A DNA stretch of 32,011 bases from a virus (taxonomy: Duplodnaviria; Heunggongvirae; Uroviricota; Caudoviricetes). This document shows positions 1 through 25,498 of the stretch, in pieces (position 1 is the stretch's first letter; every line of letters begins with the position of its first letter). The notes under the pieces are model-generated. The model saw only the letters and a program-made list of their open reading frames with translations. It was not told where the DNA came from and did not search any database. The stretch covers positions 1 to 32,011 of the IMG/VR virus record IMGVR_UViG_2695420503_000024. One strand, written 5' to 3'. Position numbers and translations under genes: made by a program.

Positions 1-1362
1 ATGTTTAAACCGGAACTCCTTTCCCCGGCGGGAACGCTGAAAAATATGCGTTACGCTTTCGCTTATGGCGCAGATGCTGTTTATGCGGGCCAGCCGCGTT
101 ACTCCCTGCGTGTGCGCAACAACGAATTCAACCACGAAAATCTTCAGCTCGGCATCAATGAAGCCCACGCGCTGGGGAAAAAGTTTTATGTCGTGGTCAA
201 CATTGCACCGCACAACGCCAAGCTGAAAACCTTTATCCGTGACCTGAAACCGGTGGTGGAAATGGGGCCGGATGCGCTGATTATGTCCGATCCAGGGCTG
301 ATTATGCTGGTGCGTGAGCACTTCCCTGAAATGCCGATCCACCTCTCGGTGCAGGCTAACGCCGTAAACTGGGCGACGGTGAAATTCTGGCAGCAAATGG
401 GCCTGACCCGCGTGATCCTCTCTCGCGAGCTGTCGCTGGAAGAGATTGAAGAGATCCGCAATCAGGTGCCGGATATGGAGATCGAGATCTTCGTTCACGG
501 CGCACTGTGCATGGCCTACTCCGGTCGCTGCCTGCTCTCTGGCTATATCAACAAGCGCGATCCGAACCAGGGTACCTGCACCAACGCCTGCCGCTGGGAG
601 TACAACGTCCAGGAAGGGAAAGAAGATGACGTTGGCAACATCGTACACAAGTACGAGCCGATTCCGGTGCAAAATGTTGAGCCGACGCTGGGTATCGGCG
701 CGCCAACCGACAAAGTGTTTATGATCGAAGAAGCCCAGCGTCCGGGCGAGTATATGACCGCGTTTGAAGATGAGCACGGCACTTACATCATGAACTCGAA
801 AGATCTGCGCGCCATCGCCCATGTAGAACGCCTGACCAAAATGGGCGTGCATTCGCTGAAAATCGAAGGCCGTACTAAATCTTTCTACTATTGCGCACGC
901 ACCGCACAGGTTTACCGTAAAGCTATCGATGACGCCGCTGCGGGCAAACCGTTCGATACCAGCCTGCTGGAAACTCTGGAAGGTCTGGCGCATCGTGGCT
1001 ATACCGAAGGTTTCCTGCGTCGTCATACTCACGACGATTATCAGAACTACGAATACGGTTATTCAGTTTCTGACCGCCAGCAGTTTGTTGGTGAGTTTAC
1101 CGGTGAGCGCAAGGGGGACCTCGCGGCGGTAGCGGTGAAAAATAAATTCTCCGTTGGCGACAGCCTTGAGCTGATGACGCCGCAAGGCAACATTAACTTT
1201 ACCCTTGAGCACATGGAAAACGCCAAAGGTGAAGCGATGCCGGTCGCACCAGGCGATGGTTATACTGTGTGGCTCCCGGTCCCGCAGGATCTTGAGCTCA
1301 ATTACGCTCTGCTGATGCGTAATTTCTCCGGGGAAACCACGCGTAACCCACACGGTAAGTGA
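1..1362 (+). CDS. yegQ: U32-family peptidase-like protein YegQ/TrhP (tRNA hydroxylation), complete 453 aa
   Basis: Full-length ORF starting at window base 1; translation matches recalled E. coli YegQ; lies immediately upstream of cyaR as in E. coli. Confidence 0.88.
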   Translation: MFKPELLSPAGTLKNMRYAFAYGADAVYAGQPRYSLRVRNNEFNHENLQLGINEAHALGKKFYVVVNIAPHNAKLKTFIRDLKPVVEMGPDALIMSDPGLIMLVREHFPEMPIHLSVQANAVNWATVKFWQQMGLTRVILSRELSLEEIEEIRNQVPDMEIEIFVHGALCMAYSGRCLLSGYINKRDPNQGTCTNACRWEYNVQEGKEDDVGNIVHKYEPIPVQNVEPTLGIGAPTDKVFMIEEAQRPGEYMTAFEDEHGTYIMNSKDLRAIAHVERLTKMGVHSLKIEGRTKSFYYCARTAQVYRKAIDDAAAGKPFDTSLLETLEGLAHRGYTEGFLRRHTHDDYQNYEYGYSVSDRQQFVGEFTGERKGDLAAVAVKNKFSVGDSLELMTPQGNINFTLEHMENAKGEAMPVAPGDGYTVWLPVPQDLELNYALLMRNFSGETTRNPHGK

Positions 1363-1396
1363 TTAATTTCGATTATTTTTCCCGGATGGAAAATTC

Positions 1397-1439
1397 TTAG
1401 AAACCGATCACATACAGCTGCATTTATTAAGGTTATCAT
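1397..1439 (+). promoter_or_regulatory. Putative cyaR promoter: CRP-like site TTAGA-N6-TCACA (1397-1412) and -10-like TATCAT (1434-1439)
   Basis: Right half-site TCACA is exact, left half matches 3/5; -10-like hexamer sits 7 nt upstream of the sRNA 5' end. CyaR is known to be CRP-activated. Confidence 0.35.
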
Positions 1440-1446
1440 CCGTTTC

Positions 1447-1533
1447 GCTGAAAAACATAACCCATAAAATGCTAGCTGTACCAGGAACCACCTCCTTAGC
1501 CTGTGTAATCTCCCTTACACGGGCTTATTTTTT
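1447..1533 (+). ncRNA. cyaR: CyaR (RyeE) Hfq-dependent small RNA
   Basis: Sequence GCTGAAAAACATAACCCATAAAATGCTAGCTGTACCAGGAACCACCTCCTTAGCCTGTGTAATCTCCCTTACACGGGCTTATTTTTT matches recalled CyaR, including the CCUCCU seed and the terminal hairpin plus U-tract. Confidence 0.85.
1507..1533. repeat. attL core: 27-bp AATCTCCCTTACACGGGCTTATTTTTT, identical to 31508-31534
   Basis: Exact 27-bp direct repeat at both prophage ends; it overlaps the 3' end and terminator of cyaR. Confidence 0.85.
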
Positions 1534-1595
1534 ACGCGTAATACAATGAAATAAAAGGATTTATTTCTGGTCACGTCCACACATTGACCACATCG

Positions 1596-1623
1596 ACAAA
1601 AAAGCCCCTCGACTGAGGGGCTT
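1596..1623 (-). terminator. Rho-independent terminator downstream of ogr
   Basis: Minus-strand hairpin AGCCCCTC-AGTC-GAGGGGCT followed by a T6 run, 12 nt after the ogr stop. Confidence 0.6.
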
Positions 1624-1634
1624 CCTGTTTGTAA

Positions 1635-1853
1635 TTACATCCACATAATTTGCTGCCCTGACGGCAACGGGTGCGGCCTCACGGCGTGGACTTCTCCCGG
1701 CTTCACGATGTATCGCTGTACCGACTCATAAGTGATGAACGTGGCGCTGCAATTCACGTTCTGGCACTGGTGATAACGCTCTTTTGTCGTGTCAGTGATA
1801 TAGCGACTTGTACGCGCATGTGCGGCATGCTGGCATAAAGGACAATGAAACAT
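1635..1853 (-). CDS. ogr: Ogr zinc-finger late-gene transcriptional activator (72 aa)
   Basis: MFHCPLCQHAAHARTSRY...CQNVNC has the Cys4 zinc-finger spacing of P2 Ogr; ATG at 1853 has a GAGG RBS 8 nt upstream. The ORF-track N-terminal extension was rejected. Confidence 0.88.
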   Translation of the reverse strand: MFHCPLCQHAAHARTSRYITDTTKERYHQCQNVNCSATFITYESVQRYIVKPGEVHAVRPHPLPSGQQIMWM

Positions 1854-1934
1854 CGCGAGCACCTCTTCCGGTTTTGTTGATGGTGCCATTTTAGTTAATT
1901 TATCCTTATAAAACAAACAGATAAAATAAAAACA

Positions 1935-3098
1935 TCACTCATCATCTTCTGTTTCGTACTCCACATCAGAAAGCCTGACCTCAAGCTCCAGGGACGTCGT
2001 GAAGCCGCTATTATTCAGAAAATGTGTCACCTTAGTGATTGTCCAGTCCTGCTCGTCTATGACGCGCTTAAAGCCTGATACTTTGACCGGCGTTTCCGTG
2101 TAAATATCTGCACGACCGGTAGCCAGGATGATGGAGAACTCCGCAACGCCCCGTTGCAGTTTATCCCACTTCGCCTGAGCGGCGCGCATGGCCTGCGCTT
2201 TCGTGGCATATACCGTGGTCAGGGCAAAAACGTTATCAGCCTCACCGGCCATGTATTCACCTTCGCGCGCTTCCGGTACTTTAGGCGCTTTCTTCTGCCT
2301 GACCGGTTTCGCTTTCGGGTGCTCCAGTGCGCGCAGGTGTTTTTCTTTCTTTTTGCGTTTCAGTTTTACCTTCTGCTTTTGCGGTTTCGGGTCTTTGGTG
2401 TGTAACCACTTTGCTGTTACGCCGGTATAGGCTCCACGGTCAGCAATCGCAAAATGATGGCGGTCGCCGTCACTGCGGGTGATGGTAATCTGCGGGATTT
2501 TTTTACCGCTGGCCGTCACCCCCTGCCCCGCTTTGAGAAACAACAGTTTTCCCATTTTTACCGACACCTCACCGCCGTTGCGTTCTGCAAGACGGGTCAG
2601 GAATTTTGCATCAGACTCCTGCGACTGGTCGATGTGCGGAATTTTAATTCCGGCCAGTGACGGCGCGACACTGGCTTCCAGCCTGTTACGGGAGGCTATC
2701 GCCTCAACAATCGCACCGAGCGTGGTGTCATGCCAGGAGCCTTCACGGCGGGAATTGAGCGTGCCACGAAAATCTGCACTCCGGGCGCGGATGGTGACCA
2801 CATCCGGCGCGCCCCGGTGTTCAACCTCATCAACGGTAAATTTCCCTTTGCATACCAGGGCAAAACCTTTCCAGCCGATATACACCGTCAGGACAGCGCC
2901 ACGAACCGGCAGCCCGACCTGCCCGTCGGCATCGTTCAGTTCAATATCAAGCTGGTCAGCCTCAAAGCCCCGGTTATCCGTCAGGGTCATGCTCATCAGA
3001 CGGTCGCTGATATTGCCGGTAATATCCCTGCTGTCGAGCATCAGCATGTAATCCGGTGTCAGCGTACTGCCTGCATCAAATGTCAGTGCATCCAGCAT
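1935..3098 (-). CDS. D: Tail protein gpD (387 aa)
   Basis: Length and position match P2 gpD; ATG verified at 3098. Confidence 0.85.
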   Translation of the reverse strand: MLDALTFDAGSTLTPDYMLMLDSRDITGNISDRLMSMTLTDNRGFEADQLDIELNDADGQVGLPVRGAVLTVYIGWKGFALVCKGKFTVDEVEHRGAPDVVTIRARSADFRGTLNSRREGSWHDTTLGAIVEAIASRNRLEASVAPSLAGIKIPHIDQSQESDAKFLTRLAERNGGEVSVKMGKLLFLKAGQGVTASGKKIPQITITRSDGDRHHFAIADRGAYTGVTAKWLHTKDPKPQKQKVKLKRKKKEKHLRALEHPKAKPVRQKKAPKVPEAREGEYMAGEADNVFALTTVYATKAQAMRAAQAKWDKLQRGVAEFSIILATGRADIYTETPVKVSGFKRVIDEQDWTITKVTHFLNNSGFTTSLELEVRLSDVEYETEDDE

Positions 3099-3577
3099 TA
3101 TCCCGCCCCCGTCATACCTATGAATTTAGTCGCCATACTGCCAGCTTTACCGATGAGCGATTCCGCCTGTTTACCGATATCGCCATAAAGCGCGGCCAGT
3201 GATTCATCAACGCGGGTGAGCGACAGCGTAAAATCAATTTTCCGGGGTGTGCCGTCTGCAAAGAAAATACTCCCTGTTTCACTCACCCTGCTGATGACAT
3301 ACATGCCGTAAATCATGCCGGTGCCATCCAGCAACGGCCACGCCCGGCCTTCATCTGCCATCAGCCTGAGCGTGGTCATCGTCAGCTTTCCGCCGGTCAG
3401 TTCGGGATAAAGCACACCGGCAAGCGTGATGTTTTCCTCGCCAACACCGAGAAACTGAAAGGCATCCCGTTTACCGATACGGGAATTTGACGGCCAGCGA
3501 TAATCTGATTCACGCTGCATGGTCTGGTGTGGCAGCGTCTGGCGCATAAAAACAAACATACCTAACGCGAGCATCAT
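3098..3577 (-). CDS. U: Tail protein gpU (159 aa)
   Basis: Synteny and length match P2 gpU; stop overlaps the D start. Confidence 0.85.
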   Translation of the reverse strand: MMLALGMFVFMRQTLPHQTMQRESDYRWPSNSRIGKRDAFQFLGVGEENITLAGVLYPELTGGKLTMTTLRLMADEGRAWPLLDGTGMIYGMYVISRVSETGSIFFADGTPRKIDFTLSLTRVDESLAALYGDIGKQAESLIGKAGSMATKFIGMTGAG

Positions 3578-3591
3578 TTTTCGTCACCTCC

Positions 3592-6039
3592 TTAACCGTC
3601 ATGCATCATGCTGGCACGGGCGCGCGCACGTTTATCCCGCTCGTATTTTTCGAGCGCATCCTGTAACTGGCGGTCAAGCTGTGTCCCCGGCGCAGTACCA
3701 CCCGTCAGGCTGATGTGATATTCGTTTTTACTCTGGTCCACATAAGAGCGGCCAGCCGGTGCCGTAACCGGCTGATAAGCCTGATAACCTGCATAAGAGC
3801 TGGTCGCCGGAATATAACCACCGGTGCCATACGTGGCGGCATGAGTTCTGGCGGCGGTCTGGTCAAGTGTGTCTGACTCTTTGTTGATAACACCGAGTTT
3901 TTCCAGTACCCAGTCAATACCGCTGCGCAGTTTGTTGAACGCATTAAGCGGCAGCATCAGCGCGTCAGCCAGTGCCTGCCCGAACATGACGCCCGTGTCA
4001 CGGCAACGGTTCAGGGTGTCCTGGGTGGCTTTGACCGGGGCAATCAGGTTTTTAAACCACTGCCACGCGGCCTGTAACTTTTCACCCAGCCAGTTAAACA
4101 GCGGCTTAAGTGGCGTGAACAGTTCCCCCACCGGCGCAAATGCCGCTTTCAGCCCTTCAACCACACCGCCAAAGAATGCGCTGACAGGCTCCCAGTATTT
4201 ACGGATAAGCAACGCCCCGGCGACAATGGCAGCCACCACGGCCACAACCGGCCAGCTAATCGCACTGATGGCCGTCATAACGGCACTACCAACCGTCGTG
4301 AAGATTGCCCCCATTGCGCCTGCTGCCGCGATAATGGCATTGATGCCGGTGATAACCGGCCAGGCTACGAGGCCAATGGCACCGATGACACCAGTCAGCG
4401 CCAGTGCACCACCGACAATGATGCCGATGGTTGACGCCAGTGATTTGTTTTTCTGTATCCAGCCGTCGAGTTTTAACACATACTTTGTGGCCGTCTGCGT
4501 GAGCTTACGCAGTGCGCCTTCCTGCTGGTCAAACAGGTCAGTCCCCACCGCCTCATAAGCGGACTGAAACTCCTTAAAGTCACCGCCGAGGTTGTCCTGC
4601 ATGATATTTACCAGCTCAGCGGTCTTTCCGTCTGAGGCTTTAAACGCAGCGGTCAGTTTGTCCAGCTTTCCGGTTGACGCGGCAGTCATCAGCACAGCGG
4701 CGGCTGAGCTGGCCTCCTCCCCGAAAATGGTTTTCATGTATTCGGCCTGCTGGGCAGTACCGAGCCGGTTTTTCTCAAAACTGGCCTGCATTTCTTTCAG
4801 AATGGTAAATACTGGTCGGGTGTTTCCCTTGCTGTCTGAGGTTTTCACACCAAGCTCTTTCAGTGCATCCCACGCTTTTCCCGTCGGTGCCTGCAGGCGG
4901 CTTAACACGGCACGGCTTCCCGTCCCCGCCATTGAGCCTGTGATTTTTGCATCATGCAGCGCCCCGACCATTGCGGCGGTTTCTTCAATGCTGACACCGG
5001 CATTTTTTGCCACAGGTGCGGCATAGGTCAGCGCATCGCTCATGCCGTCAAAATCGGCGGCGGTTTTGTTCATCGTCATGGAGAGAACATCCCCGATATG
5101 AGCGACCTTATCGTTTGAAAGCTGAAAGGCGGATTTCATCCCCATCAGCAGGGCGGCGTTTTCTTCCATCGTGCGGCGGTTCGCCAGCGCCATATTCAGC
5201 GTGACCGGCGTTGCCGCCTGAATGGCATCAACATCCCCACCCGCTTTCGCGATGATTATCTGTGCACCGGCCGCATCATCCGCTGAGGCGGCGGTATTGT
5301 CGCCGAGCTGGCGCGCCTGTTTGCGTAGTGCTGCCATTTCGGCGGAATCTTTTGCCACACCGAGCACGGCCTGTAATTCTGAGTTTTTCTGCGCAAACTC
5401 ATAACCGGGCATCAGTAGCTTAACACCGGCCATCGTTCCCGCCGCCGCAATCCCCACACCGGCAGCGCCCACTGAGGCCATATTTCCGGCCAGTTCCTTT
5501 CCGGCCTGATAACGCTGTTTGACTGCGTTAAGTTTTGCCTGTTGCTCACTGACACGCGCCAGCGCATCACGCTGACGGTTAAGCTGTGCGGTGGTTTCAC
5601 TGATACGGTTTTTCAGTCCCTGCTCATCATGTGCAAGATTGCGGGTATTAATTCCCACAACGGCCAGTTCCCGCTGCTGGCGTTTAACGGAATCCGTCAG
5701 GCGGTTATATTTCGCCTGTAAGTCCTCCGCCGCTCGCTTTGCTGATTCCAGCACTTTCGCCTGAGCACGGGTCGGACGTTCGGTGTTTTTAAACTGTGTG
5801 GCAAGGGCTTCGGCTTCCAGCCGTGCCTTTTCAAGTGCATGACCAGTCACGGCGAGCTGTGCACTGGTCTTGCGAAATCCCTCAATACGGGACACCTGAC
5901 CGTTCAGCTCGCGCAGTGATTTTTGTGTTTCCCGGATATCCCCCGACAGCGATTTGCTCGCTGTGCGGATGGATTTAAACGGGCGGGATGCCTGGTCAAC
6001 AGCCCTGAGCAATACCTGTAATTTTACATTGTTACTCAT
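3592..6039 (-). CDS. T: Tail tape measure protein gpT (815 aa)
   Basis: Long Ala/Gly-rich coiled-coil protein with a central hydrophobic segment; same length as P2 gpT. Confidence 0.88.
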   Translation of the reverse strand: MSNNVKLQVLLRAVDQASRPFKSIRTASKSLSGDIRETQKSLRELNGQVSRIEGFRKTSAQLAVTGHALEKARLEAEALATQFKNTERPTRAQAKVLESAKRAAEDLQAKYNRLTDSVKRQQRELAVVGINTRNLAHDEQGLKNRISETTAQLNRQRDALARVSEQQAKLNAVKQRYQAGKELAGNMASVGAAGVGIAAAGTMAGVKLLMPGYEFAQKNSELQAVLGVAKDSAEMAALRKQARQLGDNTAASADDAAGAQIIIAKAGGDVDAIQAATPVTLNMALANRRTMEENAALLMGMKSAFQLSNDKVAHIGDVLSMTMNKTAADFDGMSDALTYAAPVAKNAGVSIEETAAMVGALHDAKITGSMAGTGSRAVLSRLQAPTGKAWDALKELGVKTSDSKGNTRPVFTILKEMQASFEKNRLGTAQQAEYMKTIFGEEASSAAAVLMTAASTGKLDKLTAAFKASDGKTAELVNIMQDNLGGDFKEFQSAYEAVGTDLFDQQEGALRKLTQTATKYVLKLDGWIQKNKSLASTIGIIVGGALALTGVIGAIGLVAWPVITGINAIIAAAGAMGAIFTTVGSAVMTAISAISWPVVAVVAAIVAGALLIRKYWEPVSAFFGGVVEGLKAAFAPVGELFTPLKPLFNWLGEKLQAAWQWFKNLIAPVKATQDTLNRCRDTGVMFGQALADALMLPLNAFNKLRSGIDWVLEKLGVINKESDTLDQTAARTHAATYGTGGYIPATSSYAGYQAYQPVTAPAGRSYVDQSKNEYHISLTGGTAPGTQLDRQLQDALEKYERDKRARARASMMHDG

Positions 6040-6459
6040 TCGTGTTTCCGCTTCGCCGGAGCGCCTTTTCGCGCCATGTGATGAGTTCGGTCAGGCTCAT
6101 GGGATACAGTTCTGATGGCGGCCAGTGAAATATCACTGCCACATCCGCCATCAGGTCATCGACCGACAGATTTTTTGGAAACGTCACTGCACCGAGTTCG
6201 GCGACAAAAAACCGACCACCTTACCGGCCAGCGCCACAAGGTCAGGCAGTTCCAGCGCGGCGACTTCCTGCTCGGTCAGCATCGGTGCCGTCATGCGCGG
6301 CAGCACCTTAATCAGTGCATCGACTTCGGAGTTCGCGACCGCTGCCAGACTGACACCGCGCAGCGTCCCGGCGTTAGGTTTCATCAGCGTGACCTGTTCG
6401 ATGACCTGCTCACCACGCTTGACCGGATTGTCCAGGGTAATGACATTTTCTTTGTTCAT
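6032..6459 (-). CDS. E+E': gpE+E' tail assembly chaperone made by -1 programmed frameshift (~142 aa)
   Basis: Translating by hand after a -1 slip at T_TTT_TTG (minus strand 6211-6205) gives an open frame ...VAELGAVTFPKNLSVDDLMADVAVIFHWPPSELYPMSLTELITWREKALRRSGNTNE ending at TAA 6034-6032, which overlaps the T start. Confidence 0.7.
6184..6459 (-). CDS. E: Tail assembly chaperone gpE (91 aa, zero-frame product)
   Basis: ORF ends ...GFLSPNSVQ; the slippery heptamer sits 7 codons before the stop. Confidence 0.85.
   Translation of the reverse strand: MNKENVITLDNPVKRGEQVIEQVTLMKPNAGTLRGVSLAAVANSEVDALIKVLPRMTAPMLTEQEVAALELPDLVALAGKVVGFLSPNSVQ
6205..6211 (-). other. Slippery heptamer T_TTT_TTG for the E/E+E' -1 frameshift
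   Basis: Minus-strand GGT TTT TTG encodes G-F-L of gpE; this matches the motif known from P2 and lambda G/GT-type tail chaperones. Confidence 0.7.
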
Positions 6460-6515
6460 GGTTTTCTCACTTCTGAATCAGGGTTAACCGGTCAGCCTGG
6501 CTGACCGGATGAAAA

Positions 6516-7034
6516 TCACAGGCCGATATTGCGGCGGTGTTGCTCCAGCCGGTCGACGCCGTTCACCTTCTCAATCATGTTGATGGTGTCGATTTCGACC
6601 AGCTCCTTACCGTCCATCGTCAGCCGGAAATAGGTGCAGACCACGGAGATTTTCGACTCGGTGTCTTCTCCCTGTTTACCCTCGCCGGTGTCGATTTCTT
6701 TCTGACGTCCACGCATGACCACTTCGACGGCCACCGTTTCGCCGGTATCGTCGCGCTGGTAAGAGCCTGCAAAACGAATCGGCACGGCATCCACACCGGT
6801 TGCGGCGTAAAGCTCCCAGATAACCGAATCCGGGAAGCCACCGAGCGACCACTCCATTGACAGCGCATCGTCATCAAGGCCGAGGTCTACCGGTGCGCTG
6901 CCGTTCATCCCCGCACCGCGATAGTTTTCGAGCTTACGGGTCAGTTTTGGTAGCGTGACGGACTTCGCGACGCCCTGATAGCTGTAGCCGTTCAGAAAGA
7001 CGTTCATTAACTTGAGTTTGCGCGGCATTGCCAT
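6516..7034 (-). CDS. FII: Tail tube protein gpFII (172 aa)
   Basis: MAMPRKLKLMNVFLNGYSYQG... and length match P2 FII. Confidence 0.88.
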   Translation of the reverse strand: MAMPRKLKLMNVFLNGYSYQGVAKSVTLPKLTRKLENYRGAGMNGSAPVDLGLDDDALSMEWSLGGFPDSVIWELYAATGVDAVPIRFAGSYQRDDTGETVAVEVVMRGRQKEIDTGEGKQGEDTESKISVVCTYFRLTMDGKELVEIDTINMIEKVNGVDRLEQHRRNIGL

Positions 7035-7046
7035 CGGTCAGGCTCC

Positions 7047-8237
7047 TTAATTGCTGTTAACCGAGGTGACCAGATTTGCCAGGTATTTATCGGTAATACG
7101 CTGTCGCAGGGTCAGGTTTTCAAGAGGAGGCACCGGTGTATAGTCGTAGTCGATATACAGTTTTCCGGCCTTGAGGGTTTCCGCATCGTTGGATTCTTCG
7201 CTGAACCAGCAGGTCGCATCCACGATATAGCCGTTTGTTTTCAGCTCACGGAATTTGGCATTGATGCCGTCAACGATGTCGCGAATCAGCGTTACAGTGA
7301 TGGGCTTGTCCACCGCCCACATGTGCGCCTCAGCCATCGTGTCGGCCAGCACCTGCGCGGTGCGGGTGTAGTTTTCAAAGAGGAACAGCGGGTCATCCGA
7401 GCAGGTACGGTTACCCCAGAAGCGGAAACCGTCACGGCGAATCAGCGTTGTGACACCTGACTCGTTCAACAGGTCAGCATCGGTGCCGGACTCCTGCAAA
7501 TCCCAGAATACAGAGGCACTGATGCCGGTAACACCGTTCACCCCGACGTTGGACAGCGTTTTATGCCAGCCCTGCTCCTGGTCGATTTTAGCGCGCAGCC
7601 CCAGCGCACGGGCGGTGGCATACGCGGTGGCGGTGGTGCTGCTGACCGTATCCCATGCGAGGAAATCCGGCCAGATGACCATCAGCTCACGCTGGCTGAA
7701 ATTCTGGCGGTAGGCTTTCACCTCGGAAATGGTTTTACAGCCCCATGCGCTGATATACCCGAAAGCGCGCAGCTTCTGACAGACTGATGCCAGTGTAACA
7801 GCCACCTCTTTGGTGTCCAGTCCCGGCACGCCGAGAATACGCGGTTTAACACCGGTTACCGATTCCGCCGCCAGCAGGGCTTTCAGTCCGGTGTACTGAC
7901 CGTTTTCGTCGGTGGTGCCGATGATATTGGAAACGGTCTGCGCGAGTTTCGTTTCTTCGTCTTCGCCGGTGCCGTCTTCCACACGGACGACAACGGTGAC
8001 CGGTTTTGACTGGTCAGCGATGGCCTGTAACGACGCCGCCAGCGTGCCTTTTTTACCGGCCTTTGCAATTGCGCTCTGCACATTGGTAATCAGCACCGGT
8101 TTATTGAGGGGGAAGATTTCCGCATCCGCATCGCTGGCCGTGCAGACCATGCCGACAATGGCGGTGGATACGGTGGAAATGACGCGGGTGCCGTCGTTAA
8201 TCTCCAGCACCTGCACGCCGTGATGATAGTCACTCAT
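7047..8237 (-). CDS. FI: Tail sheath protein gpFI (396 aa)
   Basis: Synteny and length match P2 FI. Confidence 0.88.
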   Translation of the reverse strand: MSDYHHGVQVLEINDGTRVISTVSTAIVGMVCTASDADAEIFPLNKPVLITNVQSAIAKAGKKGTLAASLQAIADQSKPVTVVVRVEDGTGEDEETKLAQTVSNIIGTTDENGQYTGLKALLAAESVTGVKPRILGVPGLDTKEVAVTLASVCQKLRAFGYISAWGCKTISEVKAYRQNFSQRELMVIWPDFLAWDTVSSTTATAYATARALGLRAKIDQEQGWHKTLSNVGVNGVTGISASVFWDLQESGTDADLLNESGVTTLIRRDGFRFWGNRTCSDDPLFLFENYTRTAQVLADTMAEAHMWAVDKPITVTLIRDIVDGINAKFRELKTNGYIVDATCWFSEESNDAETLKAGKLYIDYDYTPVPPLENLTLRQRITDKYLANLVTSVNSN

Positions 8238-8330
8238 CCGTTTAACTCCGTGGTTAATGGGTGCAACTATTTTCTGTTGGGCAGTGCATGAGACGCTATT
8301 TGACCTGGCTGGTCAGGGGATGAAACAACA

Positions 8331-8360
8331 GATAAAGAAAAGGCGGGCAATTCGCCCGCC
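8331..8360 (-). terminator. Candidate rho-independent terminator separating the variable locus from the FI operon
   Basis: Minus-strand hairpin GGCGGGC-GAATT-GCCCGCC followed by TTTTCTTTATC. Confidence 0.5.
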
Positions 8361-8366
8361 TGTCCT

Positions 8367-9493
8367 GATTTGTACTCACTCATTTTCCGACTGACAATTT
8401 ACGTAGCCCAAACGCTATCAAATATGACAGTCTGCTTTGAGCGAAAAGCGGACATTCCTGTACAAAGCATGGCGTTGGAATACAGTCAGATCATTGATTA
8501 ATAAGTGAGTCGAATCAGAACAGTAGCCAATGAAACAAAAAATTCGCAAACGTAACCAAGACTGGATATCAAGGCAATTGAAACGTGCGCAAAAGAGGAA
8601 ATGCCGTTAAGTTTCTTTATTAACTTTCCCTCAATATGAGCAACTGCTTGTAATTGTGTGCGCCTTAAACGGCATGGTCGTCTCAAGCCGGACTGGAGTC
8701 GCGCATTGTTTCATTAGGGTTGGGGAGAAGTGCCTATTGTTGGGCAAAAAGTAGTGTTTACTGGTTTGAGGGATTTGATAAGGAGCAATTGCCTGTTGAA
8801 TGGGGGGCGCTGTGGGAAGATGCCTGAATATATTGGTTTTGATTTGATCTCACAGTGCAACACACAATCAACTCTTACAGCCTGCTGTGAGCAAAAATTG
8901 CACATTTCTAACAGCCTTCCGTGTGAATCAACGGGGAGCAGGTCACTGGCACAGAGGGGACGTTTAACCCCGTCCGGCCTCCGCTGAATTGGCTGCCAAT
9001 TCCGTCCGGTCGTACCTGCCTGAGCCGTCTACTTCAGTAAAAACTGAATCAGCATAGCAAACATATATACTGTCGCTGCAATTTGTATTGTTCGCACTCC
9101 CCATCTGAGATATCGCCATTTATGACGTTCTCTGGCATCGGCTTCTTCAATGGTGGATTCAGTATGCTTTCTTCTCTTTGTCCTGAATGGATCAATTACC
9201 CATAGGGCAAGAATAAAGAGAACGATTGTTTTCTGAAGTATGGGATGATCCACGAAGAGTGACTCCGGCCTGCTCGCTGATACAATCAGAATAGATGAAC
9301 AATCCCGAAATAATCAACACTAAATGTATGGCAATTATTTATTTTCGTCCTGGCTGGACTTTGTGACCTGCTCCCAACAAATTAACATAGCACAATGTAA
9401 GCAAGTTCTGCTTTTGGCACAGAGCGGACGGTCAGATTAGGCTTTACTCTGTGCCATAGATATGTAAGCTCCCACCAGAGCTTATACAACTTA
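8367..9493. other. Variable cargo locus at the P2 Z/fun position, with no intact large ORF
   Basis: About 1.1 kb between the FI operon and the G stop; lower GC than the flanks; only short overlapping ORFs of 85 aa or less. Confidence 0.6.
9029..9253 (-). CDS. Hypothetical small protein (74 aa) with two predicted hydrophobic helices; GTG start
   Basis: N-terminal TIVLFILALWVI and C-terminal IQIAATVYMFAMLIQFLL hydrophobic segments flank a charged loop; GGAG lies ~10 nt upstream of the GTG. No ATG start, so it may not be translated. Confidence 0.25.
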   Translation of the reverse strand: MDHPILQKTIVLFILALWVIDPFRTKRRKHTESTIEEADARERHKWRYLRWGVRTIQIAATVYMFAMLIQFLLK

Positions 9494-10018
9494 TTACGGC
9501 ATTTCCGGCCATTCAGGATTTGCAGGATCCACACGGCTGACCAGAACGCTGTAGCGTTCCCATGACTCCAGTCGTGCGCGTTCCTCATCCGTCGCCATAT
9601 TCAGCCTGACAGCGCGTTCCAGTGGCTGAATAACGCTTTCCGCTTCGGAAAGTAACGCGGCCTTTTGTGATTCTGCCTGTTGTTGCTGTTCATCTGCCGT
9701 ATAAATCCGTTTAACCACAGCACCATCCTTAAACATCCATTTACCTGAGTCGTCAGCACGTCGGTTGAAGGTAATATCAGGAACCTCAACAACGCTAAAA
9801 CCTTCAGGATTAAGCGTTGAAGCATCTCTGGTGATAGCGACAATAATATTATTTTCATCGTAAACAATCTTTATTGTGTCTGGCTGAAAGTTCTTCACTT
9901 CTTCATACCAGTTTTTCCCGTCTTCAGTGTAAAGCCAGATGACTCCGTGCTTCTTTGTTAACTCATACTGTTCCAGTGTTTTAGCGTTACCCGCTTTTAT
10001 GTTCTTTAAGTGCATCAT
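9494..10018 (-). CDS. G: Tail fiber assembly protein gpG (174 aa)
   Basis: Position directly downstream of H and length match P2 gpG. Confidence 0.85.
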
Positions 10019-10019
10019 A

Positions 10020-12173
10020 TTAAACGCTCGCTACATTATACCAGGTGCCATTTATATACTTTTGAACGGGTCTGTAATAAACGCCCGCTATATTATCGGC
10101 AGAGTTGGAACCTGTATCCTGAACATTAATACCAGACAATACATGACCTGAAGCGCACTGGAAATTCCATGTTTGCCAGTTGTTCACTCCATAATATTGC
10201 TGTGAACCAAGTCGAACATCTTTCACATATCTGGAATCAAAATTGCCATAGTTGCCGGGAATAACTTGCGAGCCGCAAAGCCAGTTCCCGTTATTATCCA
10301 TGTACGCCTGACCATCGGTGCCATTGGCTGTCCTTGAGTTATTAATCATGTAGATGCCAAATTGCTTGTTCCCCAGTCCACCTATCATGAACTTGCGGTC
10401 GGCGTGATTCTGGCGAAGCAACGCCTGAGCGCTATCAGTGTTAACTATATTTTTCCCAAAGATAGCGTTGTTATCGCGCATCTGAATCCACATACCATTA
10501 CTGCTGTTAATAGCAAAACGGTCTGAAAGTGTCTCCCCTGAAACATTAAGACCACGCCCCATCGAAACAGCGCCAGTAGCGTTATTAATCCATAATGGCC
10601 TTAATCCGTTATAAGTCCCCATGTTGTCACCGGAGTTTGTCAACATGAAGTATGTATTTGAACCATCATTACGAATAAAGAATCCGTAATTACCATAAGC
10701 AATACGTAGGCCGTTTGCTGATTTTGATATGACTTCGCCATTTACAATGGCATTGACAAGAACATACAAAGCATCCCATTTAAGATTCATCAGGTCTTTT
10801 GTTGTAGTACTCTGGCGGCTTCTCCATTTGAAATATTCATTGCCGTTATCCCCCGTTTCAAACCACATGAATGAATCAGTGTCACCATCGGCATCATTTT
10901 TAAATCCAATCTTCGCCCAGTCAGTATTTCGAATCCAGGCAAGGATTGAGTCGTTTTCAAAAGTAAGTCCACCGGACAAGGTATCGCCATTTTTTTGCAC
11001 GGCGTTCCCGGCTCGGTTTACTGTTTCCTGTAAACCGAGATATTCGATAACGGCGGCAACGGTCGATTTAGCCAGAATATCCCGCCCAACTTTTGTCAGG
11101 GTTGCCAGGCTGGCAACATCATTCCCCGTAAAATACGGAAACCTGTCTGCCGCAGTAGCAAGCCCCGCCAGCGCCGTCAGGGTAGCATCTTTCGGTTGCT
11201 TACCCGCAAGCGCATTAGTCATGGTGGTAGCAAAATTCGGGTCATTGCCCAGCGCCGCCGCCAGCTCGTTCAGCGTATTCAGTGCGTCAGGCGACGAGTC
11301 TACAAGGGCGGCAATCGCGGCCATAACGAAAGCCGTGTTTGCGATCTGAGTATTATTCGTTCCCTGTCGCGCAGTTGGCGTCGTTGGCGTTCCGGTCAGT
11401 GCAGGGCTGTTTAATGGCGCTTTTTTGTTCGTTTCATCCATTACCGTCTTAACGGCTTTTGGTGTTGCGGCGAGCGTTTCAGACGTGCTGTTGGTGGCAC
11501 TACTGAGCTGGACAAGGCCTTTTCGCGCTGTGGTGGCGTCCTGTGCGGTATATTTCCCGTTAGCAAGGTCATATGCTGCTTTTACCGCTTTTGGTGTTGC
11601 GGCGAGTGTTTCAGACGTGCTGTTGGTCGCACTGCTTAACTGAGTAAAACCTTTTGCGGTCAGCGAGGCGTCCGGGTGACGTCGTGACTGTTCGTGCTCT
11701 GCAATTTTGTCATCAACATAATCCTGCGTCGCCATCACCGTTGTGGTGTCAATGGTCAGCGCCACTGAGGCCACACTGCTGACGATGATGACCATGCGGC
11801 AGGTCTGCGAACGCCCTGAGCCTTCGGCAAGAGCGGGTTTATAACTTTCGGCCATGTTCGCCACGGCAATTAACGTTCCAGCATCATCGTACAGGCCAAG
11901 CTCACGCATCCAGAAACCGCCCACCTCCGGCGGAATAACCAGCTCTGCGATAATATAATTACTGTTTCGTTTGTCCTGGCTGATTTTGTTCAGCGCATGT
12001 CGCCAGACTTCATGGATAAGCCCGGTCTGTCCGGCATCCGGGACAGGCAATTTACCACCGCCATCCCCGACGGCCATCGTGGTAATGTTGACCTTCCGCC
12101 CTCCCGGTGCGGTTGCCGCTGCCAGCTTTGCTGCACCGGCAGTGGTGATAACGGTTCTGAATTTTGTGCTCAT
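10020..12173 (-). CDS. H: Tail fiber protein gpH (717 aa)
   Basis: Conserved N-terminus, repeated [20 protein letters not shown] motif, and a lower-GC C-terminal part. Confidence 0.88.
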
Positions 12174-24175: not shown

Positions 24176-25498
24176 TTAGTTTGTTTTTTTAACTCCACTG
24201 TATTCCGCTATCATCCTCTCAACCGCTGGAAGCAACTCAGCAGGAACGCAAATAGACCTATCTGCCTTTCCAACATCTTTTGGCGTTTTGTAAGTACCAT
24301 TATAATTAAGGACGCATTCTTTAAGAATTTCAAAAAGAGAAACAATAGGGTCTACGCCATAGCTATCAATAAACTTTCGATAGCTATCATTATCAGATAA
24401 CGATGAAATATCTCCATGAACAAACTTACACCTAAGCTCATAGATTATTCCTATTTTTGAATCAATATCAATAATTTTCGCCGCATCTCTGCAAACACCG
24501 CCAATAATTGAATTTTTATTACCATTATTGGTTCCATACATAGCATCCAATGCTATAAATTGATTCAAAAACCTTTCACGTTTGTCATCCCTCCACCCGT
24601 GCGCTATAAAGGAAAGAGCAGACAACATCCTTTTATCAGGTGATGAAAGTATTTTTGTAAGTATCGCCAAGGCTGAATCCGTTATATTTAAATTATATAC
24701 AGACGGAATATTCACCCGAAACTCACTTTCATGATATTTCCCGACACCAAAAGACTCAACTAGATTATTAACAGCAACTCGATTAATCGCAAAAGGATTA
24801 TCAACCGCAAGACATAAAGCTCCAAACAAACTATCAAACATTTTCACCGCTTTATCCTCTGATGAAGCATATGCCACCACCAAGCAGGATTTTGACTGTC
24901 GAAAATATTTCCCAATTGGTTTATGCCGCATATATTCATCATCATAAAAATCAACAGGAACCTTGATGTCAGTTTTGTCTTTAATATCAGAAAGTAATTC
25001 CACCCCTAGCCCCGGGCCATATAAAAATAAATTTTCTCTAAGCTCAAGCTTCCCATCAAAGCCAGCACACCCAAGATTATAAATATACGGACAGGATTTT
25101 ATTCGTGAAAGCATATAATACTTAAACATCTCACTAAGATTTTTTCTATGAACTTGCGTTATAATATCATCAACACAAATCTTATCAGGATTAAGCGACA
25201 GAAAATCAGCATCAATGCGATTGAAGGCTTCAGAACAAAAACCTAACAATAATCTTTTCGCATTGTGAAGGTCACTTATACCTAATTGGGGGCCATATGC
25301 TTTTAATAACCTACTAGCACATTTTGCAATCTCCTCATCATCATATGCAAGCCAAAAAACAAAATCTTCTAATGCTTTACCGACTTGGATACAAGGCTGC
25401 TCCTTACCATGACTATAAAAAAAACTTTTGCATAATTTGTTTATCATGCCATTAGAGAACGCAACCTTCATAGATACTTCATCCCTTAACGCACTCAT
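24176..25498 (-). CDS. Hypothetical 440-aa protein, AT-rich cargo gene at the P2 old/tin hotspot; candidate anti-phage defense or abortive-infection protein
   Basis: Clean 1323-nt ORF with ATG and an AAGGA RBS; roughly 30-35% GC against ~60% in flanking phage genes; occupies the position of P2 orf91/tin/old; no Walker A motif, no TM segment; contains a weak HEPN-like R-x4-H (RCKFVH). Confidence 0.75.
   Translation of the reverse strand: MSALRDEVSMKVAFSNGMINKLCKSFFYSHGKEQPCIQVGKALEDFVFWLAYDDEEIAKCASRLLKAYGPQLGISDLHNAKRLLLGFCSEAFNRIDADFLSLNPDKICVDDIITQVHRKNLSEMFKYYMLSRIKSCPYIYNLGCAGFDGKLELRENLFLYGPGLGVELLSDIKDKTDIKVPVDFYDDEYMRHKPIGKYFRQSKSCLVVAYASSEDKAVKMFDSLFGALCLAVDNPFAINRVAVNNLVESFGVGKYHESEFRVNIPSVYNLNITDSALAILTKILSSPDKRMLSALSFIAHGWRDDKRERFLNQFIALDAMYGTNNGNKNSIIGGVCRDAAKIIDIDSKIGIIYELRCKFVHGDISSLSDNDSYRKFIDSYGVDPIVSLFEILKECVLNYNGTYKTPKDVGKADRSICVPAELLPAVERMIAEYSGVKKTN

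Follow-up and report, generated by a model that had tools for sequence, protein, structure and literature searches.

A probable composite module at the Z/fun position of a P2-like prophage

We analysed a 32,011-nucleotide stretch of viral DNA (positions 1 to 32,011 of IMG/VR record IMGVR_UViG_2695420503_000024; hereafter the window, meaning the whole stretch), in which the open reading frames (ORFs) and the homology of both flanks to P2-like phages revealed a P2-like prophage read in reverse. Its positions 8367-9493 lie between the tail-fibre assembly gene G and the tail sheath gene FI, that is, at the variable Z/fun position, the hotspot at which P2 carries cargo. This 1.1 kb is probably a composite module of two fused cassettes that is exchanged by site-specific recombination at two types of short site, designated here T1 and T2. 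The accessory ('moron') module would combine two single-gene cassettes, one with a dead gene for a protein of 99 amino acids (aa) on the plus strand and the other with an intact 74-aa gene on the minus strand. The following features define it.

8430..8453 (+): T1 site GTCTGCTTT-GAGCGA-AAAGCGGAC, left module border (repeats and junction alignment)
8530..8827 (+): pseudogene of a conserved 99-aa protein family (homologues; three-frame tblastn)
8880..8903 (+): degenerate internal T1 GCCTGCTGT-GAGCAA-AAATTGCAC, 3' border of the 99-aa cassette (repeats and homologous cassettes)
8938..8961 (-): degenerate T2 GTCCCCTCT-GTGCCA-GTGACCTGC, 3' border of the 74-aa cassette (repeats and homologous cassettes)
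9029..9253 (-): intact 74-aa gene with GTG start 9253-9251, GGAG 9266-9263 and TAG stop 9031-9029 (ORF, phrog_25496 and homologues)
9406..9429 (-): T2 site GTCCGCTCT-GTGCCA-AAAGCAGAA (minus-strand reading), right module border (repeats and junction alignment)

An earlier note, made from the sequence alone, had pointed to two related direct repeats of about 30 nt. The repeats are real, but a repeat search gave three copies (8431-8453, 8881-8903 and 9407-9429) rather than two, and the exact 23-mer was expected 0.00 times in shuffled sequences. They proved to be copies of a 24-bp site in which 9-bp inverted arms (GTCYGCTNT) surround a 6-bp spacer, with the consensus GTCYGCTNT - 6 nt - RRAGCRGAC. 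The spacer defines the type of the site, GAGCGA being T1 and GTGCCA being T2: 129 of 135 spacers were one of these or its reverse complement, and the other six were off by one or two bases. Throughout the DNA that we fetched, the arm pair occurred 135 times with a 6-nt spacer, whereas each other spacer length in the range 0-12 nt gave 0-2 occurrences. In the left border site, positions 8430-8438 (the outer arm) are P2 backbone, and the spacer and inner arm move with the cargo; the outer arm of the right border (9421-9429) is P2 backbone as well. The two internal sites are the 3' ends of the cassettes, as was shown by homologous cassettes with intact sites. The internal T1 is intact in other genomes (GTCTGCTGT-GAGCGA-GAAGCGGAC), and the degenerate T2 has retained its outer arm and spacer, its inner arm being replaced and overlapping a GGGGAGCAGGTCA motif at 8934-8946.

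The core site of a tyrosine recombinase consists of inverted binding arms around an asymmetric overlap region of 6-8 bp, and the 9-6-9 arrangement of T1 and T2, with its nearly exclusive 6-nt spacer, has this layout. The two arms of a site vary independently (position 21 stays G when position 4 is C, T or A, and there are only 4 T-A pairs), which argues for a double-stranded protein-binding site and not for a folded strand or RNA; a folded single-strand or RNA hairpin model of the sites was rejected on the same ground. A terminator model was also discarded, since no T-run follows the sites and the terminator scan finds only a terminator of the backbone. In addition, a motif, GGGAGCAGGT(CA), was observed 30-40 nt inside 12-17% of the T1/T2 sites, nearly always in the same orientation, against a background of about 4% per 100 nt. 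The window has it at 8934-8946 (+) and at 9363-9375 (motif on the minus strand), as do many other loci, and possibly it serves the sites as an accessory element.

The module lies in unrelated backbones and its borders fall at the spacer

The interior of the module, about 1 kb, was 98.9-99.2% identical in about 20 complete Escherichia coli genomes, in which PGAP, the standard NCBI pipeline, annotates nothing there. It occupies five unrelated backbones (loci are given by their L numbers).

Backbone 1, P2 Z/fun: the window, L002, L016, L030
Backbone 2, lambdoid prophage, between hokD and a DUF977 gene: L001, L019
Backbone 3, IncF-type plasmid region: L003
Backbone 4, P4-like/restriction-modification island: L017, L018, L029
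Backbone 5, integrative element adjoining mutS: L015, L031, L032

In the alignment of the junctions, identity begins and ends within the 24-bp site, and the point at which it does so corresponds between the left and the right border. The left outer 9-mers of the backbones (GTCTGCTTT, GTCCGCTTT, GTCCCTTAT, GTCTGTTAT and GTCTGCTAT) differ from one another yet all fit one arm consensus, the right side varies likewise, and no similarity was found farther out. Six different cargoes in P2 Z loci gave a matching picture, with a backbone that is common through the spacer and divergence from the inner arm on, on both sides; the landing pad in the IncF region holds an alternative cargo with identical junctions. 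Every junction examined, 12 in P2 loci and 10 for the 1-kb unit, was located at the spacer, although the window and P2-EC31 resemble each other for a further 45 nt or so inside T2, which means that the site does not mark every junction. The switch of parental sequence at the spacer in these 22 junctions is indirect evidence for a possible strand exchange within it.

With a 16-mer from T1, 120 viral contigs were retrieved. Full sites were present in 70 of the first 80 contigs, and only about eight of the 70 were P2 Z loci. The 113 non-redundant neighbouring site pairs in the 120 contigs followed a strict grammar: T1(+) followed by T2(-) was the most frequent arrangement (68 pairs, gap 319-4085 bp), corresponding to modules, and T1(-) followed by T2(+) accounted for 27 pairs with a median gap of 18 bp, corresponding to linkers. 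Direct pairs were observed as well, eight of the type T1(+)/T1(+) and four of the type T2(+)/T2(+). The window conforms to this grammar, with T1(+) at 8430, T2(-) at 9406 and two degenerate sites between them. In the E. coli P2-like prophage L030 (4544-5772) the 1-kb module is interrupted by an IS3-family element.

A 200-aa tyrosine recombinase gene is linked to the sites

In the plasmid context, the T1 of the 1-kb unit is 39 bp away from a gene for a 200-aa 'site-specific integrase'. Its product scored 64.8 bits against PF00589 (cutoff 27.1), and the catalytic R..K..HxxR..H..Y residues can be recognized by eye in the translation (LRGCD, QQKTG, HSMRR, LLGH and VRYL). Against the XerA/integron-integrase model it scored 53.6 bits, the cutoff being 220. 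The recombinase, of which WP_001752951.1 is an example, is carried by 876 of 5426 complete E. coli genomes (16%), mostly on the chromosome, and by 67 viral contigs. We examined 14 enterobacterial copies with 82-96% identity: T1(-) was found 40 nt before the start codon in nine of them and T2(+) 20-22 nt after the stop codon in eight, with both sites in five copies and neither in three. This spacing indicates that the gene occupies the linker between two modules. Moreover, of nine loci that had been fetched with the unrelated 99-aa query, two had the recombinase no more than 3 kb from a 99-aa cassette.

A sequence search of the PDB with the recombinase returned no relative. Its distant homologues in Sinorhizobium, Asticcacaulis and Shewanella are followed in two of three cases by a partial resemblance to the site (ending in GAAGCGGAC), which is too weak to use. 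Relatives with 57-61% identity occur in alphaproteobacterial plasmids (L026 and L027), with GTGCCGGCCCGAAGCGGAC and GAGCGCCCGAAGCGGCC downstream; the likeness of both to the spacer plus inner arm hints at a possible enzyme-site link beyond Enterobacterales. In CP4-type islands (L227, E. coli H8 chromosome 1073-10220; L023, 19170-23296) the small recombinase or an array of four cassettes, which include a DUF3800 protein, is flanked by a very large reverse transcriptase gene on one side and dynamin-family genes on the other. Judging from this context, modules often carry defence-like genes.

The first cassette carries a dead 99-aa gene

As the earlier note had stated, there is no ORF above 85 codons inside 8367-9493, and the note had named a decayed cargo gene at the Z/fun position as one of two options. 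Such a gene is present, on the plus strand at 8530-8827 and not in the joined minus-strand frames in which it had been sought. The three minus-strand ORFs starting at 9253, 8905 and 8686 do have a common reading frame, but this is a coincidence, because 8905-8714 and 8686-8498 are antisense to the 99-aa pseudogene; these two ORFs also have no protein homologues, and the minus-strand reading across the TAG was rejected. In an E. coli island, the first half of the region recurs as a partial copy with 91% identity, and there a plus-strand gene of 99 aa is annotated.

Four lesions separate the window copy from the intact members of its family (P0001-P0014). One A is lost from the run 8591-8594 (-1 frameshift), TGA at 8637-8639 replaces Arg37 of the intact copies, TAG at 8715-8717 replaces Gln63, and one C is lost after 8744 (-1 frameshift); tblastn recovers the copy in three frames. 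The family itself has a constant length and 68-93% identity in Escherichia, Yersinia, Citrobacter, Enterobacter, Cedecea and others, and its ratio of non-synonymous to synonymous divergence (dN/dS) is 0.1-0.4 between diverged pairs. One intact copy is located at L004 3107-3406. An intact relative gave a weak match to phrog_12809 (E 3.7e-7). The dead gene of the window does nothing. An independent 99-aa pseudogene with three in-frame stops was noticed in Kluyvera cryocrescens (L014, 4001-4297), and the family seems to decay repeatedly.

The second cassette carries an intact 74-aa gene

The earlier note had found no intact gene in the region, which does not hold for 9029..9253(-), a complete member of a conserved family. 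The ORF matches phrog_25496 with E 2.4e-24 over residues 2-73 of a 75-position profile, which is essentially its full length. Ten of 11 relatives align without indels, with identity down to 58%; these are 74 aa long in nine cases and 71 aa in one, and the outlier P0028, with 72 aa, was dropped from later alignments of the family. The protein has two hydrophobic stretches around a charged loop, EEADARERHxWRYLRWG, which is invariant among the relatives. Conservation is highest at codon position 2, and GGAG-N9-GTG is kept. Neither phrog_25496 nor phrog_12809 carries an assigned function among the phage protein families. The seemingly 'empty' hotspot DNA hides a real 74-aa gene that PGAP has missed. 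Two further features belong to this cassette.

9254..9330 (-): roughly 75 nt preceding the 74-aa gene, including the ribosome-binding site; presumed promoter and 5' untranslated region (kept across diverged cassettes)
8986..9002 (no strand): palindrome GAATTGGC-T-GCCAATTC between CCGTCCGG repeats, 27-45 nt 3' of the 74-aa stop (sequence)

The 74-aa gene is co-oriented with the late tail genes, and the terminator scan detected no terminator between it and G. We presume that in the lysogen the protein would be produced from the gene's own conserved upstream region, in which the promoter scan found no consensus sigma-70 promoter, and that during lytic growth the gene would be expressed by read-through from gene G. 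Our working guess, held with low confidence and drawn by analogy with other Z/fun cargo, is that the protein could act at the membrane in conversion or in exclusion, directed at other phages or at the envelope. A comparison with type I toxin-antitoxin systems gave a mixed outcome: the two hydrophobic helices, the conserved leader and the low synonymous divergence are compatible with such a system, but a length of 74 aa and a charged loop of 30 residues are atypical of it. Neither the promoter scan nor Rfam gave an antisense promoter or RNA opposite the gene. In Citrobacter amalonaticus (L033, 5001-8337) a 66-68%-identical 74-aa gene (P0023) stands directly upstream of a gtrA/gtrB-type (gtrA/glycosyltransferase) O-antigen modification operon, and no T1/T2 site was detectable near it.

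The 17-bp palindrome GAATTGGCTGCCAATTC was described correctly at 8986-9002, with 8-nt arms and one central T. Both flanking CCGTCCGG direct repeats are also present, the second at 9002-9009 as described and the first at 8970-8977, one position off. The palindrome is kept in all the 99%-identical copies and absent from the diverged cassette homologues, among which only L020 has a clear hairpin at this position, of different sequence. Possibly it forms a hairpin at the 3' end of the 74-aa mRNA.

Proposed exchange mechanism and alternative explanations

We propose that modules consisting of T1 and an inverted T2 are swapped between equivalent 'landing pads' of unrelated prophages, satellites, islands and plasmids, each swap requiring one crossover in T1 and one in T2. 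Since the two spacers differ, such a module would be neither excised nor inverted, only exchanged. Single genes between two direct sites of one type, on the other hand, would enter and leave as circles. Both cassettes of the window may once have been flanked by direct sites of the same type, and with the decay of the internal sites they would have come to travel together. The likely enzyme is the 200-aa tyrosine recombinase of the inter-module linker, which for the window would act in trans. The genes, the architecture of the sites, the breakpoints, the grammar and the linkage of the recombinase are observed, whereas site-specific recombination, the part played in it by this enzyme and the action of the 74-aa protein are inferred.

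Several observations weigh against this scheme. Both internal sites of the window are degenerate, and the history of two fused cassettes is to that extent a reconstruction. A homology search found no copy of the small recombinase in the window, and the arms that adjoin the recombinase gene elsewhere are the most degenerate of all (GTCCCTTAT and AGCAGCCCT). With regard to the cargo, the dN/dS of the 74-aa gene is high (0.3-0.9), and PGAP does not annotate the gene in any E. coli record examined. AlphaFold2 predicted a hairpin of two long helices for the 74-aa protein with a predicted local distance difference test score (pLDDT) of 63, and it reached a pLDDT of 50 for the 99-aa family, both of low confidence. 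Finally, neither protein had a significant match in Pfam or PADLOC.

The main competing explanation takes the repeats to be conserved regulatory or structural elements, for example hairpins at transcript ends, and ascribes the mosaic borders to ordinary homologous or phage-recombinase exchange at short shared sequences, with no dedicated recombinase. Exchange at short homologies has been proposed for the promoter/stem-loop cassettes of T4-type phages and for the boundary sequences of lambdoid phages. It would need short conserved sequences common to all partners, and the sites are such sequences; many module-bearing elements, the window included, are without the small recombinase, and the extra similarity inside T2 that the window shares with P2-EC31 is also in its favour. 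Nevertheless, we consider this explanation unlikely. It would have to place all 22 junctions at the spacer and none elsewhere in the much longer backbone homology, and it must face a spacer fixed at 6 nt in only two classes, a strict grammar of orientations and a tyrosine recombinase gene at fixed distances from both site types. The lack of a T-run after the sites means, in addition, that they are not intrinsic terminators.

Another option, already raised in the earlier note, is a noncoding RNA or an RNA-based regulatory locus with the repeats and the palindrome as RNA structures. Conservation in the 75 nt or so upstream of the 74-aa gene equals that of its coding part, and the synonymous divergence of the gene is low relative to the non-synonymous one, which would fit a constraint by an antisense or leader RNA. 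However, Rfam 15 gave no match at E<=1 inside 8367-9493, and a permissive search of 8000-9800 returned only IS009, inside gene G (E 0.37; 16.7 bits versus a threshold of 117 bits). The repeat arms show no compensatory covariation, the palindrome region folds no better than shuffled sequences (z-score only -1.65), and protein-coding homology accounts for both halves of the region. Thus, an RNA locus is highly improbable. We attach slightly less credence still to a non-autonomous transposon, in which the 1-kb unit would have terminal inverted repeats of about 15 bp (GAGCGAAAAGCGGAC and GTGCCAAAAGCAGAA), a transposase acting in trans and a specific palindromic target. The ends of the unit do bear imperfect inverted repeats, and the unit is found in many unrelated places, where the similar flanking 9-mers could be read as a target preference. 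Against this, there is no target-site duplication; the predicted empty target, with arms and no spacer, was never found compared with the 135 arm pairs with a 6-nt spacer; no transposase is linked, the linked enzyme being a tyrosine recombinase; and different cargoes lie in the same pads with identical junction geometry. An insertion sequence or a miniature inverted-repeat transposable element was likewise rejected, since neither a duplication nor any arm-arm site whose spacer measured 0-5 or 8-12 nt was found.

Comparison with described systems

GenBank records AJ512677 and AJ512680 contain the P2 Z/fun region with annotated flanking inverted repeats. The locus between G and FI is the same as in the window, its cargo varies between phages, and T1 and T2 of the window fall inside the stretches annotated as right and left inverted repeats; the 74-aa gene and the dead 99-aa gene, however, are absent from both records. 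The locus and its repeats have been on record since 2004, when Nilsson, Karlsson and Haggard-Ljungquist (Mol Biol Evol) annotated the inverted repeats and, to judge from the title of their paper, proposed site-specific recombination. We found no description of the repeats in papers citing it, and a full-text literature search with the site sequences and with terms for prophage cassette exchange gave nothing relevant. The definition of the 24-bp site with two spacers, the grammar outside P2 and the link to the 200-aa recombinase come from the present analysis, the overlap with the 2004 paper being uncertain.

The closest described architecture is that of the dif modules of Acinetobacter, with which T1/T2 modules have the module logic in common, though not the sequence or symmetry of the sites or the enzyme. 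The dif modules are discrete accessory modules with inversely oriented short sites that have a 6-bp spacer, are acted on by XerC/XerD, and consist of distinct XerC and XerD arms (11-6-11) resembling the chromosomal dif (PMC13141974). In both cases two types of unit alternate (here 68 T1(+)/T2(-) modules and 27 T1(-)/T2(+) linkers), and fused modules as well as identical modules in different replicons occur (PMC13141974). In contrast to the dif sites, T1 and T2 have symmetric arms in a 9-6-9 layout with the orientation in the spacer alone, and inspection by eye revealed no similarity to dif. Each T1/T2 module is flanked by two spacer classes, the units that alternate with the modules are mostly 18-bp linkers or the recombinase gene, the hosts are prophages, islands and plasmids of Enterobacterales, and the candidate enzyme is a dedicated 200-aa recombinase and not XerCD.

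Integrons possess an IntI-type integrase, recombine attC sites as folded single strands and hold their cassettes co-oriented, to be read from one promoter. Similar to integrons, the arrays described here comprise mostly single-gene, promoter-poor cassettes with short imperfect palindromes between them, adjoin a tyrosine recombinase and have defence-like cargo. Unlike integrons, T1 and T2 have neither the bipartite organization of attC nor the covariation of a folded strand, genes of both orientations occur, the recombinase has modules to its left and to its right, and at about 200 aa it scores far below the XerA/integron-integrase cutoff; the system is therefore not an integron. A further parallel is offered by recombinase-mediated cassette exchange (RMCE) with Cre/lox or Flp/FRT, where heterospecific sites facing each other block excision and inversion and allow exchange with an equally flanked module. 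A T1/T2 module similarly lies between two facing sites with common arms and different spacers. RMCE is a laboratory design, whereas the T1/T2 arrangement would be, as we propose from its sequence, a natural counterpart.

It is possible, although we would not call it probable, that T1/T2 and the 200-aa recombinase constitute a cassette-exchange system of Enterobacterales that has so far gone undescribed. It would correspond in nature to engineered two-site exchange and would move accessory and defence genes between the hotspots of P2-like and lambdoid prophages, P4-like satellites, integrative islands and plasmids. If true, this would explain the base-pair-precise turnover of variable hotspots, the borders of modules, and with them complete accessory or defence systems, could be read straight from sequence, and a compact natural two-site exchange system would be on offer. 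Genes for conversion and for defence against phages are known to be stored in the variable hotspots of P2-like phages and of their satellites, and in the papers that we read the means by which cargo is cleanly swapped between unrelated elements has not been worked out (PMC9122126). The locus described here offers a concrete and testable answer: a 24-bp site with two spacers, a strict grammar in more than 100 viral contigs and a common small recombinase between modules.

The P2 backbone around the module and other features of the window

The backbone genes and elements next to the module are listed below.

7047..8237 (-): tail sheath gene FI (ORF call)
8341..8361 (-): intrinsic terminator, GC-rich 9-bp stem followed by a T-run (terminator scan and sequence)
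9416..9455 (no strand): P2-backbone inverted repeat GGCACAGAG...CTCTGTGCC, which overlaps T2 and is part of the annotated 'left inverted repeat' of P2-EC31 and P2-EC46 (sequence and records)
9494..10018 (-): tail-fibre assembly gene G (ORF call)
10020..12173 (-): tail fibre gene H (ORF call)

The terminator at 8361-8341, a strong one on the minus strand, is part of the P2 backbone and separates the cargo region from FI; it stops minus-strand transcripts that leave the cargo region, before the FI promoter. On the other side, window positions 9364-9493 match the 'left inverted repeat' annotated in the GenBank records of P2-EC31 and P2-EC46, and both borders in the window align with the inverted repeats of L005 and L006, so that the region is flanked by repeats in the manner of P2 Z/fun. 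The lower GC content that the earlier note had reported was borne out (0.42-0.49 in 8367-9493 versus 0.52-0.61 in FI and T), the genes G and H being likewise low at 0.40-0.46. The GGCACAGAG segment upstream of T2 pairs with CTCTGTGCC and resembles a fossil second T2 site placed back to back with the first; the lambdoid backbone has an equivalent of this pairing, with G-T changes.

Two features farther away were also noticed. A 440-aa ORF at 24176-25498 (-) occupies the other P2 variable position, with portal/terminase genes on one side and a large replication gene on the other. It is uncharacterised cargo that has no match in Pfam or PADLOC and no flanking T1/T2 sites. At the left end, positions 1-1362 (+) hold a gene of the peptidase U32 family, which is presumably host DNA, and the end of the prophage would in that case lie near 1.4-1.9 kb.

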